Assembly: GCA_039028615.1 (NCBI GenBank)
Contig: JBCCHT010000009.1
Location: forward strand, 64,001-128,000
Source of the DNA: Myxococcota bacterium
GTDB taxonomy: Bacteria; Myxococcota_A; Polyangia; Nannocystales; Nannocystaceae
DNA length: 64,000 nucleotides
Direction of reading: 5' to 3'
The notes below the pieces were generated by a model. It made no database searches. It was not told where the DNA came from and saw only the letters and a program-made list of their open reading frames with translations. Each line of letters opens with the position of its first letter. The first letter of the stretch is position 1. The translations under genes were made by a program, and so were the position numbers. Below, in pieces: positions 46,241-59,277 of this stretch.

Positions 46241-46504
46241 CGGTTTCGCGCCGTTTTTGATCTGCGCGCCCGATCCATGGCGAGATCTGCCGGGCGACTC
46301 CCCGGTTCGCGGGAGAACGGTACTCGAAAGCACAAAAGCGGCGCCGATTCTGGCCTGAGATGGGCGGAATCGAGCATTGATGGCTAGTGGTTATGCTACC
46401 AGTGGCTACAAGTATAGCCATATAGGTTTTGGGCATACAATGTAGGCATGTGTAGACACACGTAGTTTCTCCAATGATTCCTACATGTAGGTCAATGGTG
46501 GGCC

Positions 46505-46519
46505 TGGCACACACATTGC
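46505..46519 (+). promoter_or_regulatory. Sigma-54 (-24/-12) promoter
   Basis: TGGCAC-ACACA-TTGC matches the RpoN consensus exactly, about 95 bp upstream of ATG 46615. Confidence 0.75.
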
Positions 46520-46614
46520 GTAGGGGGGGAGCGCGAGGCCAGTGGCCACCCGCAACCGCAACCGTCACCCACGACGCCCGTCCTAACCGCCCAAGAGCTT
46601 CTCGAGGAATCAAG

Positions 46615-48768
46615 ATGATGAAAGCCAACAAGATCGCCTGGCTGACCGCTTTGACCATTCTGGCTGGCTGCGCCGATGCAGGGACGGACAACGAGCCCGG
46701 CGACGAGCTGAGCCCGGACTTCCGTGACGGCTCGTACCACTACGTGTTCGGGTACGACCCCGAGACCGGCGAGCAGATTCGCGGCGGCGCGCACATGGTC
46801 CTGACCTTCGACGAAGAGGGCAAGACCGAGGCCATCGACTCCGCCAACCGCACCTCGCGATTCCACCCCTCGCTGACCACGGGCAGCGAGTACGCCCGCT
46901 TCGACGCGAGCCTCACCGAGGGCGAGACCGACTGGGACGTGTTCGCCTCCACCTGGTGGCCGCAGTCCAAGAACGGCACCGCTTGGCGCTGGCAGCCCGG
47001 CGCCAACCAGGACTACGCCGACCTCAGCGACGTCGACACCCTCTCCCCCATGGAGAAGTACGACCTGCTGTTCTACCCGGGCCAGGGCGATACGGTCCCC
47101 GCGACCGAGAACTGCACCTACGCCGACTACGCCGAGGACCGCGACAACTGCGAGAAGACCTCGCACCCCGAGCTGACCGTGGCCGGCCCCGCTACCAAGT
47201 GGGAGATCGAGAACCAGGGCCAGTACCAGTGGGTGCAGCCCGAGAACTGGTGGGGCCACTGCAACGGCTGGGCCTCCTACGCCACCGCCGAGCCCATGGG
47301 CTACCCGCACCGCGACGTCCGCGTGAAGCTGGTCGACGACAAGGTCACCGAGTGCGTCGAGGGTGATGACGACGCCAGCTGCGTGCTGTGGAAGATGGCC
47401 GACGTCGAGGGCCTGTTCACCGAGCTTCACTTCAGCGACCAGGCCACCTTCACCGGCCGACGCTGCCGCACCGCCGCCGACGAGATCGAGCGCGACGAGT
47501 TCGGTCGTCCCACCGACGTGTCCTGCCGCGACCTCAACCCCGGCTCCTTCCACATCGCCATCACCGGCCTGCTGGGCCGTGGCACCCGCAACCTGACCAC
47601 CAACGAGGACGGCCGCCCGCCCTTCGTGGTCGACCACACCGCGGACTACGAGGTCTGGAACTTCCCCGTGACCGCGTTCACGGCGGACTACGAGACCGTC
47701 ACCGCCGAGCAGGCCAACGAGCTCATCGGGGCCAACGGCTCCGACTACGTCTTCAACGACGACGCCGTGTCCTTCCAGCGGGTCGCCCTGACCTACACCA
47801 TGATCTCGGACGCCGTGCCCGAGAACGAGCTGCTCAAGCGCGCCGACACCCGCAACGTCGACCCGCACCTGGTCGAGCTCAACTACGTGCTCGAGCTGGA
47901 CGAGGGCGGCCGCATCATCGGCGGCGAGTGGATCAAGGATCCCGTCACCACCGGTCCCAACAACCAAGAGCTGCACCCGGACTTCGCCTGGATGGCCGTG
48001 GGCGCCATTGGCTACGGCGAGGGGTCGGATGACACCGGCGGCGACAACGACAACCCCTACATCGCGCTGTCCAAGGCTCGCGCCCTGCTCCAGTGCGCCA
48101 ACGAGCCCGAGTCCTGCGCCCCCGAGGGCCGCGACGGCGAGCTCGAGCCCCTGCTCGACGTGACCGAGATGGTCGCCGAGGACGAGACCCGCACCTACGC
48201 CACCGAGGAGCTTCCCGCGGGCGAGTTCACCGTGACCCTGGCCCACACCGAGGCCAATCCCGGCGGCGACGCGGACCTCTACGTCCGGGTGGGCGAAGGC
48301 CCGACCATGGAGGAGTACGACTGCCGCCCCTGGGAGACCGGCAGCGACGAGGTGTGCGTGGTCAACCTGACCGAGGCCAGCCGCATCGACATCATGGTCC
48401 ACGGCTACCCGGGCGAGGGCGACAGCCACTTCCGCCTGACCGTGACCGGTGACGTCGGCGAGCCCGAGCCCGAGGTCTGGGGCGGCCTGAACGAGAGCGG
48501 CACCGTGGTCGCGGGCGAGGAAGTTCGCTTCACCACGCCCAGCCTGCCCGTCGGGAGCTATCTGTTCGACATGAAGGGTGACGAGGACGCAGACCTCTAC
48601 GTCGCGGTGGGCAGCGAGCCGACCACTTCGGTCTACGAGTGCCGCCCCTACCTCAACGGCTCCGAAGAGCAGTGCACCGTCACGCTGAGCGAGCCCGCCG
48701 AGATTCACGTCATGGTCCGCGGCTACGCCGACCGCTCCAACTGGCAGCTCACTGGCGCCGCCCAGTAG
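46615..48768 (+). CDS. Transglutaminase-elicitor-like lipoprotein with two C-terminal PPC domains
   Basis: Lipobox LAGC; LSPMEKYD, WWGHCNGW, DLNPGSFH, EVWNFPV, GEWI, HPDFAW; 2x DADLYV...YDCRP...C PPC domains. Confidence 0.8.
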   Translation: MMKANKIAWLTALTILAGCADAGTDNEPGDELSPDFRDGSYHYVFGYDPETGEQIRGGAHMVLTFDEEGKTEAIDSANRTSRFHPSLTTGSEYARFDASLTEGETDWDVFASTWWPQSKNGTAWRWQPGANQDYADLSDVDTLSPMEKYDLLFYPGQGDTVPATENCTYADYAEDRDNCEKTSHPELTVAGPATKWEIENQGQYQWVQPENWWGHCNGWASYATAEPMGYPHRDVRVKLVDDKVTECVEGDDDASCVLWKMADVEGLFTELHFSDQATFTGRRCRTAADEIERDEFGRPTDVSCRDLNPGSFHIAITGLLGRGTRNLTTNEDGRPPFVVDHTADYEVWNFPVTAFTADYETVTAEQANELIGANGSDYVFNDDAVSFQRVALTYTMISDAVPENELLKRADTRNVDPHLVELNYVLELDEGGRIIGGEWIKDPVTTGPNNQELHPDFAWMAVGAIGYGEGSDDTGGDNDNPYIALSKARALLQCANEPESCAPEGRDGELEPLLDVTEMVAEDETRTYATEELPAGEFTVTLAHTEANPGGDADLYVRVGEGPTMEEYDCRPWETGSDEVCVVNLTEASRIDIMVHGYPGEGDSHFRLTVTGDVGEPEPEVWGGLNESGTVVAGEEVRFTTPSLPVGSYLFDMKGDEDADLYVAVGSEPTTSVYECRPYLNGSEEQCTVTLSEPAEIHVMVRGYADRSNWQLTGAAQ

Positions 48769-54060: not shown

Positions 54061-54324
54061 TCAGTCCTCGGCGGGGAGGGGGCGCAGGCGAGCCCGACCC
54101 GCGCGTCGCTTGAGGCGGTACTCGAGCGACTGCGCTTCGCCGCGGGTCTCGAAGGGGCCGTGGGTGATGCCGACCGTCCAGGGGCGCCCGGCTCGGGTCG
54201 ACTTGGCGCCGCCCGGTTGCTCCCCGTTGTGCTGCTCGAGCCGGCGATCGAGGTCGTTGGTGATGCCTACGTAGGTCCGCCGACCATTGCTGGATACCAG
54301 CACGTACACCGTCCACTCGGACAC
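54061..54324 (-). CDS. GIY-YIG nuclease family protein (stand-alone, YhbQ-like)
   Basis: VYVL..TYVGITNDLDRRLEQHNG..GAKSTR..RPW..E..LK; GTG start estimated. Confidence 0.88.
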   Translation of the reverse strand: MSEWTVYVLVSSNGRRTYVGITNDLDRRLEQHNGEQPGGAKSTRAGRPWTVGITHGPFETRGEAQSLEYRLKRRAGRARLRPLPAED

Positions 54325-54491
54325 CCCCGCAGCGTCGCCGATGGGTCGCGCCGTGTCCAGGGCGCTGCGGTCCACGCCGACGCCCGAGCGGGGAAACCAT
54401 GAACGTCGCGCGGAACGAAGGTCCGCGCGAGCCCAACGGGCATCCATCTCCCGTGTTGACCCCGCCCGAATCCGCGTGCGATCGATGATGG

Positions 54492-55220
54492 GTGACCGTG
54501 AAATCCCGCCCCGATCGTAGCCCCCTCGTCGTCCCTCGCCGCGGCTTCCTGGTCGCCGCGGGTGCGCTCGCAGGGGTCACCGTGCTCCCGCGCTGGGCGG
54601 TGGCCGGGACCCACTACGCGTTCGTGAAGATCGAGGCCAACGGCACCGTCGTCACGGGGAACACGGACATCACCAACATCGGCGGCGAGGAACTGCCCCG
54701 CGCGGAGTGGATTCAGTGCAAGCGGGTCAGCTACGGGCTCAAGCGCGACATCGGCACGGGCGCTCGCGTCAGCGGTCACACGCACTACGACCGCATCGAG
54801 TTCGATGCCAAGGGCGGCCCCGGCTACAAGGGGCTCACTTCGGCGCTGAAGCGCGATCCCAAGCACAAGTCCTATACCCACATCGGCTTGTATTGCCCCC
54901 GGAGCACGTCGGCCCCCTTGCTCGCCCAGGCCCTCGAGCGCGGCCACACCGTCAACCTGGAGATGCGGTTCTTCCACTCGGGCAGTGCCAAGGGCGACGA
55001 GGCCACCAAGTACATGGAGATCGTGTGCACCGATGGCCGTCTCGCCGGCGTCAAGGTCATCAACCAGACCCGGCCCGAGGCCAAAGGGACGACGGACGTG
55101 GAGGGGGAGGCCAACATGATGATCCACTACGCCTTCCATCAGATGCAGATCGACCACGTGGGCGATGACGGTGCGACCTCGGCCCACTTCGAGTGGACGG
55201 GCATGAGCAAGGCCGACTAG
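54492..55220 (+). CDS. Hcp/TssD-like tube-fold protein with twin-arginine signal peptide
   Basis: PRRGFL+hydrophobic+AVA; mature part AFVKIE..VTG..WIQC..VSYG; SAPLLAQALERG; EMRFF..G..KYMEIVCTDG; YAFHQMQI..FEW follows the Hcp pattern. Confidence 0.65.
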   Translation: MTVKSRPDRSPLVVPRRGFLVAAGALAGVTVLPRWAVAGTHYAFVKIEANGTVVTGNTDITNIGGEELPRAEWIQCKRVSYGLKRDIGTGARVSGHTHYDRIEFDAKGGPGYKGLTSALKRDPKHKSYTHIGLYCPRSTSAPLLAQALERGHTVNLEMRFFHSGSAKGDEATKYMEIVCTDGRLAGVKVINQTRPEAKGTTDVEGEANMMIHYAFHQMQIDHVGDDGATSAHFEWTGMSKAD

Positions 55221-55247: not shown

Positions 55248-56747
55248 TCATCGAGGCAGCGTCACTCGGATGGTGTCGGTGCGGATCGTCCCGCCCCAAT
55301 CATCCTTCGTCAGCCTCCAGCGGTCGCGTTTCCGTTGCGTGTCGTTGTGACGATCCTGCACCGCCGGGTCCTGAGATAGCTCGAAGCCGAGAGTGACGAC
55401 CTCCCCGGGGCTGGCGGGCACGCCGTACTCGGTGTGCTGTGCGGCTTCACCCGTCTCGGGATCGACGCCGACGTTCTCGGCGGGGTTGCGGACGAGCAAG
55501 GCCTTGCGCCCCTCGTCGTAGGCGAGGCGGAGCTCGAACCTCAACGTGTCACCCGCGTGCATGCGCAGGAGCTTCCCTTGCGTCGCCGCTCTGATGTTGC
55601 CGGCCCCCGGGAAATCGTAGTGCTGCAGCGGGGCCCAGGTGCCATCGGGCCTCGCGAAGTGAAGCGTGCTGCCATCGACGAAGCGGGTGCTGTGTGTGTT
55701 CGTGACGGGGGCTCGATAGCGGCCTGGCAGTGATTCCTGGATGGACGACAGCCGGACCATCCGAAGGCTCTCGTTGCGGATGGTCACGATGGCCGTGAAC
55801 TCTTTGCCATCGCTACCGGCCTGCGGCCCATCCTCGATGGACAACGAGACCGCCAGCGTCTCCGTTGGCGCTTCGGCGACGCCATCGAGGACGCCGGGAT
55901 GAAATCCCTCGATCTCGAGGCCCGGGCGAGCCGCCAGGAGGTCGCGAAGAGCCTTTTGTTGTTCGCGGTCGATCCGTGTGGAGTCGATGCCGAACGAACC
56001 GAGCACGCTCAACCGCTCGAGGTTGGGCAGCTCCGCGAGGCGGGACAGCGCGCCGAGGGGGAGCTGGTCGTTGTCGCGAAGGTCGAGCGTTCGCAGCCGT
56101 TTCATCGCGAGGACGTGGTCGAAGCCGGCCTCGTCGAGCCCGTAGTTCGCGAGGTGGAGGTGTTCCAGGTGCTCGAGCTTCGCGACGGTGCTCAGCTCGG
56201 TACCCCCGGTGACCTCGGCGTGGGTGAAGCGATGGTCTGCGAGGTTGAGGGCTCGCAGACTGGACAGCGCCGCCAAGTTGGAGAGCGCCGCGTCTTCGTA
56301 GGGCAAGCCCGCGAGGTCCAGTGCCGCGAGGCGATTGAGTTCGGTCGGGCCCCAGTGGCAGTGGTCTTGGCTGGACTGGTGATCGGAGGCGATATAGCCG
56401 TCGAAGTAGGGGAGGAACCCGCCCCGTGGTGAGTCGGGCTGGCACAGGGTCGACAACCAGCGCGCCGTGGGCTCGAGGGATGCGGGGTTGTTCGTGTGCG
56501 GCGTAAAGCCTGGCGGGGTCGACAGCAGGTCGAGGCGAAACCAGTCGATCGGCTCATCCCATGCGGCAACGCTCTGCCCGTCGTCAGTCTTCGCGGCCCC
56601 GGCGGAGCTTTGGCCCTCGGCCTGCGGTGCCGTCGACGGCGGAGCGCTCGTCTCGGGCGGTGGCGAGGGACGGTGCGCGCAGCCACTCGCAAAGAGCACT
56701 GCGATCGACATGAGTTGGGTCAGAGGCTTCACGATGTTGATCGCCAT
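55248..56747 (-). CDS. Leucine-rich-repeat lipoprotein
   Basis: Lipobox FASGC; LxxLxxLxL repeats (LRALNL, LEHLHL, LRTLDLRDN, LERLSV). Confidence 0.78.
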   Translation of the reverse strand: MAINIVKPLTQLMSIAVLFASGCAHRPSPPPETSAPPSTAPQAEGQSSAGAAKTDDGQSVAAWDEPIDWFRLDLLSTPPGFTPHTNNPASLEPTARWLSTLCQPDSPRGGFLPYFDGYIASDHQSSQDHCHWGPTELNRLAALDLAGLPYEDAALSNLAALSSLRALNLADHRFTHAEVTGGTELSTVAKLEHLEHLHLANYGLDEAGFDHVLAMKRLRTLDLRDNDQLPLGALSRLAELPNLERLSVLGSFGIDSTRIDREQQKALRDLLAARPGLEIEGFHPGVLDGVAEAPTETLAVSLSIEDGPQAGSDGKEFTAIVTIRNESLRMVRLSSIQESLPGRYRAPVTNTHSTRFVDGSTLHFARPDGTWAPLQHYDFPGAGNIRAATQGKLLRMHAGDTLRFELRLAYDEGRKALLVRNPAENVGVDPETGEAAQHTEYGVPASPGEVVTLGFELSQDPAVQDRHNDTQRKRDRWRLTKDDWGGTIRTDTIRVTLPR

Positions 56748-56825
56748 TGTAGTGCACCGCATTGGAACTCTGACAGACGAGCATGGCGACCGAGTCGTAT
56801 TGCGCTAGCCTCGACGCGAGGCACG

Positions 56826-57635: not shown

Positions 57636-58213
57636 CGCCCCAAAATCAGGTCGAGGGAGCTCCCCGCGGCACGGCGCAGACGGCCGGGCTCCGTGTTCGT
57701 GCGAAGGGCCCGCAGCGGCTCGATGAAATCGGCCCAGCCGATGATCCCCGCGACCTCGGCCGCCGCGACCGCGACCTCGAGCGAATCCGACTCGAGGCCT
57801 CGTAGCACCCCACGTACCGTATTCTTCGCCGGCTCGTTGGGGGCCGAGTAGCCGAGCCGATACAGTATCGACGGGTCGCTCGAGTCCGCGGCCGAGGCAC
57901 ACAGCGCCTCGTGGGACTCGGCTGGAATCAGGCGCTCGAAGACCTCGACCAACCGTCCCAGCTCGGCGGCATCGGACGACTCCAGGCGGAGGTAGCGAAC
58001 TCGCCCGAGGTAGTCCTCCCACAGCTCGATATGACTGGTCTCGGGCTCATCGGAGAAACGGGTGCGCCGCGTGGTATCGGACTCGTCGTGCGCCGACTCC
58101 ACGAACTCGAACCCCAGCTCGTCCAGCGCGTCGATGCACTCGAACAGGAGCTTGCGCAGCGCTTCACGCTCTGCAAACGGCAGGCGTGGGACCAGGTACT
58201 GTTCGGCGCTCAT
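57632..58213 (-). CDS. Hypothetical protein with HEAT-like C-terminus
   Basis: Start re-chosen at MSAEQYL; helical C-term AVAAAEVAGIIGW...LRRAA. Confidence 0.6.
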   Translation of the reverse strand: MSAEQYLVPRLPFAEREALRKLLFECIDALDELGFEFVESAHDESDTTRRTRFSDEPETSHIELWEDYLGRVRYLRLESSDAAELGRLVEVFERLIPAESHEALCASAADSSDPSILYRLGYSAPNEPAKNTVRGVLRGLESDSLEVAVAAAEVAGIIGWADFIEPLRALRTNTEPGRLRRAAGSSLDLILGR

Positions 58214-58284
58214 CAGTCGAAGGGGTCTGCCCTTCCGACCCTCGACGGTCATGCGGGCTCTGCAATCGTACAATGCCGTCGACC

Positions 58285-59277
58285 ATGCGGATCGGGCTGA
58301 CATCCTTCCTTTTGTTTGCGGCCGGGTGCGCTGCGTCTCCCACCGTGCCCACCTCTGCGCCGGGACCCGGGGCGGTCGAGCCCGTGGCGATCTCGGAGTC
58401 CGCCTCCGAAGGGGCAGAGCCCGCGGCGAGTTCGGGGCCCGCGTTCGAGACGAGCGACCCCGGGGCGAGCGAGTTCGCCCCGAACGTTGCTCCCGGTTCA
58501 CTCACGTGGAAGGAGGCGGTCGAAGTCGAAGCGGCCACGCTCGAGGCGGCGTACCCAGAGGCCGACATTCGCATCATGGTGCTGGATTCATCGGGGTCCG
58601 ACATGCTGGCCGATCATGGCGATGTGGACCGGAGGTCACCGATCGGAGACACCACGAAGCCGGTGGCCATCTATGCTGCGCTCGGCGAAGGCCTCGACCC
58701 CGCGATGACCTTCGATACGTCGAAGCCGGTCGTGCTGGACGGACTGGAGGTCCGCGACGAGAGATCCAGTGGCGTGCTCACCCTGTCGCAGGCGATCGCC
58801 GGGTCCTCGAACGTCGCCGTGGCTCAGGTGCTGGAGATGGTGCCGTGGAAGGCGGTCTACGCTCGTGTCGCTTACTTTCTGCCGATTCCCGAGTCGGGCC
58901 GCGAGACCCTGCAGGAGGTGGCGGGGCAGCTCATTGGGTTCACCTGCGAGGTTCCGCTGCGCGACCTCGGGCGGGCCTACGCGAGGATGGTGGCAGAGCC
59001 CGACAGCGCGGCCATCGTCGACGTGCTGCGCCTGGCGGTGGGGCCCGACGCGACCGGAGCGCGGGCCGCCGTACCCGGCCTGGATGTCCTGGGCAAGACG
59101 GGGACGGCCGGAGATCCAGGCAATCGCATCGCGGTGTTCATCGGGCGTGTCAGCGATGGTGAGACGACAGCCTGGATCGGAGTCTCGGTCGGCGGGGCGG
59201 GCAAAGGCGAGGACGGAGGTTCGGTGGCGGCTCCGGCCTTCGCCCGGATTGCTCGCGCGGTGCTCGGAGGATCCTGA
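58285..59277 (+). CDS. Penicillin-binding transpeptidase-domain lipoprotein lacking the catalytic Ser
   Basis: Lipobox AAGC; GDTTKP (SxxK site), SSN, GKTGTA, GGSVAAPAF. Confidence 0.82.
   Translation: MRIGLTSFLLFAAGCAASPTVPTSAPGPGAVEPVAISESASEGAEPAASSGPAFETSDPGASEFAPNVAPGSLTWKEAVEVEAATLEAAYPEADIRIMVLDSSGSDMLADHGDVDRRSPIGDTTKPVAIYAALGEGLDPAMTFDTSKPVVLDGLEVRDERSSGVLTLSQAIAGSSNVAVAQVLEMVPWKAVYARVAYFLPIPESGRETLQEVAGQLIGFTCEVPLRDLGRAYARMVAEPDSAAIVDVLRLAVGPDATGARAAVPGLDVLGKTGTAGDPGNRIAVFIGRVSDGETTAWIGVSVGGAGKGEDGGSVAAPAFARIARAVLGGS

Follow-up and report, generated by a model that had tools for sequence, protein, structure and literature searches.

The window analysed here, a stretch of 64,000 nucleotides from the genome of a marine myxobacterium, contains on its forward strand (positions 54492-55220) a GTG-initiated open reading frame encoding a precursor of 242 amino acids, designated P0001, in which a predicted twin-arginine (Tat) signal of 38 residues (54492-54605) precedes a mature domain of 204 residues with a predicted Hcp fold (54606-55217). 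The GC3 value of this frame is 0.91, similar to that of the neighbouring genes, and an ORF on the opposite strand was rejected as the shadow of this GC3-rich gene. A single Logan contig, which may stem from the source sample, covers the gene with 0 differences. An in-frame stop located two codons 5' of the GTG defines the start; the same GTG is present in the relative at locus L004 and in a relative from a biofilm metagenome, and a clear ribosome-binding site lies immediately 5' of the twin-arginine signal of the relative at L007. Two internal GTG codons were considered and rejected: the biofilm-metagenome relative has CTG at the position of codon 31, while codon 37, which corresponds to ATG in the biofilm relative but to Phe/Leu in L004 and P0004, is not a conserved start. 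A signal-less isoform starting at codon 37 may be produced. A scan for promoters and terminators at the gene returned nothing.

The gene is flanked by a small, divergently oriented GIY-YIG gene (54061-54447, minus strand) and by a convergent gene for a lipoprotein-like LRR protein (55248-56762, minus strand), both of which are absent beside the gene in L004-L007. Elsewhere in the window, positions 46474-48768 (plus strand) encode a secreted protein in which a transglutaminase-elicitor domain (PF16683, E 2.8e-29) is combined with two PPC domains, and positions 58186-59277 (plus strand) encode a stand-alone penicillin-binding transpeptidase-like domain with a weak match (PF00905, E 4e-10).

The N-terminus of P0001 exhibits the sequence PRRGFLV at residues 15-21 (RRGFL at residues 16-20, positions 54537-54551, plus strand), which is near the S-R-R-x-F-L-K twin-arginine motif and is followed by an Ala/Gly-rich h-region with a best ten-residue hydropathy of 2.24, by an Arg at residue 34 in the c-region and by a predicted AVA cleavage site at residues 36-38 (54597-54605, plus strand), so that the mature protein would begin with GTHY at residues 39-42. 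The twin-arginine motif, hydrophobic stretch and AVA site noted in a preliminary description of this locus were all confirmed. Criteria for Tat signals given in a published account comprise a moderately hydrophobic h-region, a basic residue in the c-region, which is a Sec-avoidance feature, and an AxA site (PMC7317946). The rule employed in the current study, devised for this analysis, combines RRx[FL][LI], an uncharged hydrophobic stretch and AxA; the N-terminus of P0001 passes this rule against a background of 2 of 109,850 stop-free 38-residue windows on the plus strand of 20 contigs, and the Pfam TAT_signal model yielded a match below its cut-off (E 0.061). Comparison with L004 returned a dN/dS of 0.21 for signal residues 15-38, as compared to 0.13 for the N-terminal half of the domain, 0.38 for a duplicated stretch and 0.49 for the C-terminal half, with residues 1-14 being unconstrained, and the signal region 15-38 is under purifying selection. 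The host encodes TatC (on contig C27), and a TatC match was obtained in two of the three other carriers of the gene, with no match in the third, G021. Judging from these features, the precursor would very probably fold, leave the cytoplasm via Tat and be cut after AVA.

Homologues retaining the RR motif, for which the preliminary description had proposed a search, comprise seven relatives as called, in addition to the DNA of L004 and L006. Together with the retained GTG start, this also speaks against the concern raised in that description that the true start might lie downstream of the motif and that homologues might lack the signal. Other relatives carry Sec or ER-type signals joined at the same junction as the Tat signal of P0001, indicating that Tat is not demanded by the Hcp fold. 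While folded proteins are indeed Tat cargo according to the above account (PMC7317946), the need for Tat as the route of a folded oligomer, as originally envisaged, is therefore weakened, also because other exported Hcps use Sec (see below). The joining of several unrelated signals at the same residue, the low dN/dS of the signal (0.21) and of the N-terminal half (0.13) and a frame that is open in all four genomes carrying the gene also speak against the idea that a stray hcp gene was joined to a signal by chance and is now decaying neutrally; this explanation is highly improbable, even though the patchy presence of the gene (in four of the order's 73 genomes) and the relaxed dN/dS of the C-terminal half (0.49) would be consistent with it.

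The preliminary description had recognized an Hcp-like domain along the whole length of the mature protein, an assignment which is weak when based on the P0001 sequence alone, yet clear from the family profile and the predicted structure. TIGR03344 matched P0001 with an E value of 2.3e-5 and 24.4 bits, compared to a cut-off of 58.9, while a PF05638 search of P0001 returned no match and a direct sequence search of the PDB returned no match to Hcp. The relatives lacking the duplication described below exceed the PF05638 cut-off of 23.5 (P0005 with 30.6, P0043 with 27.7 and P0015 with 33.0), 18 of the 30 rows of the family alignment (A1) match PF05638 at E <= 0.1, and the family profile retrieves the Myxococcus xanthus Hcp (5URW), the closest solved structure by this measure, at E 1.2e-7. 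Two AlphaFold2 models of P0001 were generated, with mean pLDDT values of 63.7 and 73.5, canonical Hcps having been included in the alignment for the second model and none in that for the first. A Foldseek search placed Hcp at the top (E 2.9e-10), and VIA returned a best Hcp match with a Z score of 17.6 (rmsd 3.1, 143 residues aligned), the range for Hcp structures being 15.3-17.6, with a β-barrel and helix across the whole mature domain; the structural match to Hcp on which the preliminary description had made its reading depend was thus obtained. The best fold matches are 4HKH, 7FCF, 3V4H and 6A2V, identity to solved Hcps by structure amounts to 10-17%, and the Atlas assigned P0001 to Hcp at 0.93, as compared to less than 0.9 for P0022, one of the so-called short-C members, the latter value being no more than a lead. 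P0001 and canonical Hcps furthermore have in common the Pro at the start of the helix, a helix Leu and a loop Gly. It is almost certain from these predicted structures that mature P0001 adopts the Hcp fold.

In its predicted fold over the whole mature domain and in its motif order P0001 thus resembles Hcp/TssD (PF05638, TIGR03344), and the P0001 family descends from a myxobacterial-type Hcp subgroup with which it has an LGG insert in common. It differs from Hcp/TssD by its Tat signal, a score below the family cut-off, its location outside a T6SS cluster or hcp-vgrG island, a duplicated β3-α1 unit and relatives in protists. Phage tail tubes and the tubes of extracellular contractile injection systems (PF06841, PVC, R-pyocin) belong to the same fold superfamily, yet are further removed from the P0001 model than Hcp is (Z scores of only about 8-10, against 17.6), and P0001 also departs from these by its signal and by the lack of sheath or baseplate genes nearby.

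An insertion of about 25 residues had been reported in the preliminary description; an insertion is indeed present, although it corresponds to 29 residues and represents an internal tandem duplication of the β3-α1 unit, i.e., strand β3 plus helix α1. The first copy (residues 99-127, positions 54786-54872, plus strand), which contains the insertion reported in the preliminary description, is identical at 12 of 29 positions to the single unit of the signal-less relative P0005, and the second (residues 128-156, positions 54873-54959, plus strand) at 16 of 29. A self-match test detected the duplication in P0004, P0006, P0008 and P0009 (0 of 100 shuffles being as good in each case), yet missed it in P0001 (19 of 100) and in P0019 (73 of 100), so that for P0001 it is supported by the match of both copies to the P0005 unit. 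In the AlphaFold2 model the diverged second β3 copy fills the barrel and the strand of the invariant first copy is left outside, a placement that would be in line with selection on exact sequence instead of the fold as a whole, yet is weak evidence since mature residues 47-74, including this first β3 copy, have a pLDDT below 50.

As stated in the preliminary description, no T6SS or contractile-injection genes occur in the window: none of these families is present among the matches listed for its 48 ORFs, and a tblastn search of the window returned none, although the host genome possesses both elsewhere. No vgrG gene, PAAR gene or effector-immunity pair adjoins the P0001 gene. The loci of relatives L004-L007, representing three genomes and one metagenome, have different neighbours, without any T6SS family among those read and with an upstream msrA gene common to L005 and L006 only, and at each of the five loci examined (the window and L004-L007) the gene stands as an orphan. 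A synteny comparison showed that the genes flanking P0001 match separate contigs in congeners. Of the order's 73 genomes, four contain an orthologue, and five congeners gave none; three further weak matches among the 73 are canonical Hcps. In the phylum sample the gene occurs only in the host genome (1 of 401), in the class sample in the same four (4 of 401), and a pattern scan of GTDB returned three loci and that of JGI one. An Hcp match as such was obtained in 61 of the 73 genomes of the order.

Within the host genome, a T6SS with its own hcp gene is located at C34:126000-144943 and C19:1-3600, four VgrG genes score above cut-off, and a PF06841 search returned four places, none of which is at the P0001 gene, with contractile-injection tube genes at C9:206194-211900, C15:146289 and C73:16793, two of them on the contig of the window at a distance of 87 kb. 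P0001 could in principle be an accessory subunit of this T6SS, or of a contractile injection system, that is added from the periplasmic side, and the presence of these genes would agree with such a role. This is, however, very improbable, given that the host's own Hcp (L001:1456-1953, minus strand) is only 21% identical to the mature domain of P0001, that the five congeners possess Hcp without the P0001 gene, that carrier G021 gave no match to T6SS families or to PF06841, and that protists carry the P0001 family. The host's own Hcp has an unusually long branch (0.66) in a quick tree. In carriers G021 (86% complete) and G023 (87% complete) searches for Hcp, TssC and TssF returned no match and no VgrG scored above cut-off, absences which are uncertain at this level of completeness and because G021 lacks a TatC match as well, while carrier G010 (78% complete) has matches to tssC and vgrG.

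Orphan hcp-vgrG-effector islands, or auxiliary T6SS clusters, are comparable to the P0001 locus in that their hcp gene is remote from the main cluster, yet they differ by the vgrG, PAAR and effector-immunity genes that P0001 lacks next to it, and the signal would remove P0001 from the cytoplasm.

Apart from the record of the window itself, a first search identified 28 relatives, to which a profile search added three more. Five of the 28 are signal-less and have their Met exactly at the mature start, i.e., mature P0001 begins at the position right after this Met. Seven have the RR motif as called and one more when read from DNA, three were called in truncated form and show a Tat-like h/c-region, two have Sec-like signals, two are fragments, and five carry names from eukaryotes or fall into clusters with them, while three signal-bearing relatives on contigs of 95-720 kb group with the diplonemid members in the quick tree. 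A search of 1.84 billion representatives showed a steep drop after four strong matches, and the P0001 family is small and tight. Viral contigs, phages and plasmids gave no match to the family, and no fused longer forms were present among 7,991 candidates, the latter being weak evidence.

Chromera velia is a cultured organism, as are the diplonemids Rhynchopus humris and Flectonema neradi. The members named from them (P0016 and P0012/P0043 from Chromera, P0015 and P0031 from Flectonema, and P0029 from Rhynchopus) bear N-terminal hydrophobic signals, and stretches of 25 and 26 residues in the Chromera proteins (genes Cvel_22785 and Cvel_13547) are exactly those of P0001. Since Chromera and Flectonema have two paralogues each and one MMETSP transcript record exists, these data argue against simple contamination of the putative protist genes. 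The quick tree, from which the signals, one duplicated stretch and the fragments P0014 and P0024 were removed and in which P0043, the full cluster mate, stood in for P0012, places the P0001 family on a long branch as a single clade, distinct both from the canonical Hcps of myxobacteria and from a separate lineage with Sec signals. A careful tree, calculated without the short-C group and P0019, leaves the family unrooted; because Hcp is bacterial, we infer transfer from bacteria to protists. The term 'HCPL' in one diplonemid paper was found to denote a lens rather than an Hcp.

The Sec-signal lineage just mentioned consists of orphan Hcps of the same myxobacterial family, twelve of which were read directly (L020:1363-1947, L021, L023-L027 and L029-L033), the hcp gene being located at about 1450-1990 of each locus. 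At E 1e-30, a query with one of these proteins matched 14 of the 73 genomes, signals having been checked in part of these, and the host genome of P0001 returned no match. A copy with an internal TAG stop is present at L022 (G056:C962:1480-1932). These proteins are comparable to the P0001 family in combining an export signal with Hcp outside T6SS clusters, but they form a separate clade and use Sec rather than Tat. Among 66 weaker matches (P0044-P0109), 28 have a hydrophobic N-terminal stretch according to a crude test, at least two of these appearing false, which suggests that signal-bearing Hcps are common. RR motifs are seen in P0045 and P0051, several Hcp repeats per chain in P0058, P0059, P0080 and P0094, and P0054, a secreted, Cys-rich protein of 379 residues from a 1.9 Mb ENA contig that may be eukaryotic, contains two split pieces resembling the P0001 family. 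In the open literature, as distinct from subscription papers, no description of signal-bearing or protist Hcps was found, nor any paper joining Hcp, Chromera and type VI secretion. Exported Hcps thus represent a recurring and apparently undescribed class, to which P0001 adds a Tat form, protist members and a link to verbatim peptide copies.

The most conserved part of the family is a stretch of 24 residues comprising the β2-β3 loop and the first β3 copy (residues 82-105, positions 54735-54806, plus strand), which is exact in 12 of 29 family proteins and identical at 22 or more of 24 positions in 20 of 29. Compared with the signal-less P0005, the β2-β3 stretch displays an identity of 0.95 in the two exported groups of bacteria and in the eight short-C members, yet the last two segments of these short-C members display only 0.07 identity to P0005, their C-terminal half having been replaced. 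[quoted passage not shown] P0001 may be a freely occurring structural ring or nanotube of the periplasm or surface: exported subunits would assemble into hexamers that stack via the β2-β3 loop, serving for conduction, as a scaffold or in adhesion. Such a structure is in keeping with an Hcp fold that aligns in full from residue 2 to 200, with the Pro, Leu and Gly retained from canonical Hcps, with the reported hexamerization and stacking of Hcps in vitro (PMC2944823) and with the family's most conserved part being the stacking region. We consider it possible but rather unlikely, however, as it is difficult to reconcile with the replaced C-terminal half of eight relatives, with a 29-residue duplication in the core of the P0001 lineage, and with Gln75 and His96 occupying the sites that correspond to the stacking pair D26/K50 of Hcp1 (by manual mapping); moreover, no conserved anchor or partner gene accompanies the gene and the 20-residue pieces in unrelated proteins described below are left unexplained. 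The Gln75/His96 pair is likewise found in signal-less members, and therefore says little on any change at export.

Verbatim pieces of the family occur in otherwise unrelated proteins. An exact piece of 21 residues is located at residues 984-1004 of P0109, a protein of 1328 residues from the Asgard archaeon Ca. Heimdallarchaeota (MCY3411598.1), with a second near copy at about 1173-1194. P0109 bears a signal, and its two copies correspond to the C-terminal hairpin of the family, with ends that resemble two different family alleles; a weak eCIS_core match lies at 872-908. A 20-residue exact piece is present in P0072, a protein of 56 residues, in which it occupies the last part after a leader ending in Gly-Gly, an arrangement that we take to resemble a precursor peptide. 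Exact runs of 22 and 21 residues are found in the secreted-looking proteins P0036 and P0061, which could be assembly products as their contigs are short (1.2 and 3.4 kb, respectively), and a 12-residue exact piece in a Myxococcales protein. P0024, P0034 and P0035 were omitted from this list as probable gene fragments, and the host genome contains no further copies of family words beyond chance 8-mers.

The near-constancy of the family also bears on a possible function as a periplasmic or secreted cargo chaperone, whose lumen would stabilize the cell's own toxins or enzymes while Tat would move the ring together with its cargo. The Hcp lumen is reported to bind diverse cargo (10.64898/2026.06.15.732508) and Tat to transport folded proteins (PMC7317946), yet according to the former source the lumen residues of genuine Hcp are variable, no cargo gene accompanies the hcp-like gene, and the Tat signal is replaced by Sec or ER-type signals in relatives, which makes this function distinctly unlikely. 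Composition of the family suggests a further candidate role, that of a His-rich metal-binding protein: His amounts to 4.9% of core residues for 23 rows of the family, versus 2.1% for 24 other Hcps, and cleavage would expose an N-terminal Gly-Thr-His that presumably resembles the Cu/Ni-binding ATCUN motif, with x-x-His following the predicted cleavage site in most signal-bearing members. This role is nonetheless quite improbable, seeing that P0006, P0008 and P0009 keep the His column without His being third, that this His is absent from P0016, P0029 and three signal-less members, and that no metal genes adjoin.

T6SS tubes are assembled in the cytoplasm. For this reason, and because protists carry the family and two carriers show no T6SS, P0001 probably would act independently of the cell's own T6SS, and the presence of close relatives with export signals in unrelated protists makes an extracytoplasmic, needle-free role likely. 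In this respect the preliminary description, which had envisaged the T6SS-independent export of a domesticated tail-tube fold, finds support in the Hcp fold, the conserved and selected signal, the orphan location, the two carriers in which no T6SS was detected and the protist members; its interpretation as a whole is supported in part, with ring, filament, chaperone and decoy as candidate functions. Hcp is described in one study as forming hexamers with outer and inner diameters of 80 Å and 40 Å and as lacking a classical signal peptide (PMC2944823), and P0001 would, on balance, form putative rings of this type.

The function of the exported protein could tentatively be to confront something foreign with surfaces of Hcp, chiefly with the β2-β3 loop, for example by capping incoming tube rings, by soaking up tube-borne effectors or by jamming a receptor that reads Hcp. 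Surface presentation is suggested by the fact that the exact sequence is kept where the surrounding fold is not, and that other organisms export the same words in isolation. An attacking T6SS equipped with this type of Hcp was not seen at the loci read. Our favoured, though still tentative, reading is thus that P0001 is a stand-alone, Tat-exported Hcp at the periplasm or surface that may imitate the T6SS tube, or act as its decoy, without firing. A wider and rather doubtful extension of this mimic or decoy reading is that predatory myxobacteria, protists and an Asgard archaeon each took up the same T6SS tube sequence, either whole or as 20-residue words, and joined it to export signals, and that this sequence would have stayed nearly letter-perfect since exported copies intercept or jam a contractile-injection attack or its recognition.

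Hcp is regarded as the signature protein of the T6SS and as a cytoplasmic subunit that lacks a signal. A family whose members would leave the cytoplasm via Tat, via Sec and apparently via the eukaryotic secretory pathway represents a second use of the Hcp fold, and annotation as 'Hcp' alone is thus not evidence of a T6SS. The mature domain of 204 residues should be easily expressed. If the decoy reading is true, P0001 would represent a general defence against T6SSs that is independent of cognate immunity genes, and cross-domain mimicry, if true, would amount to an anti-T6SS decoy and to a T6SS component domesticated by eukaryotes.
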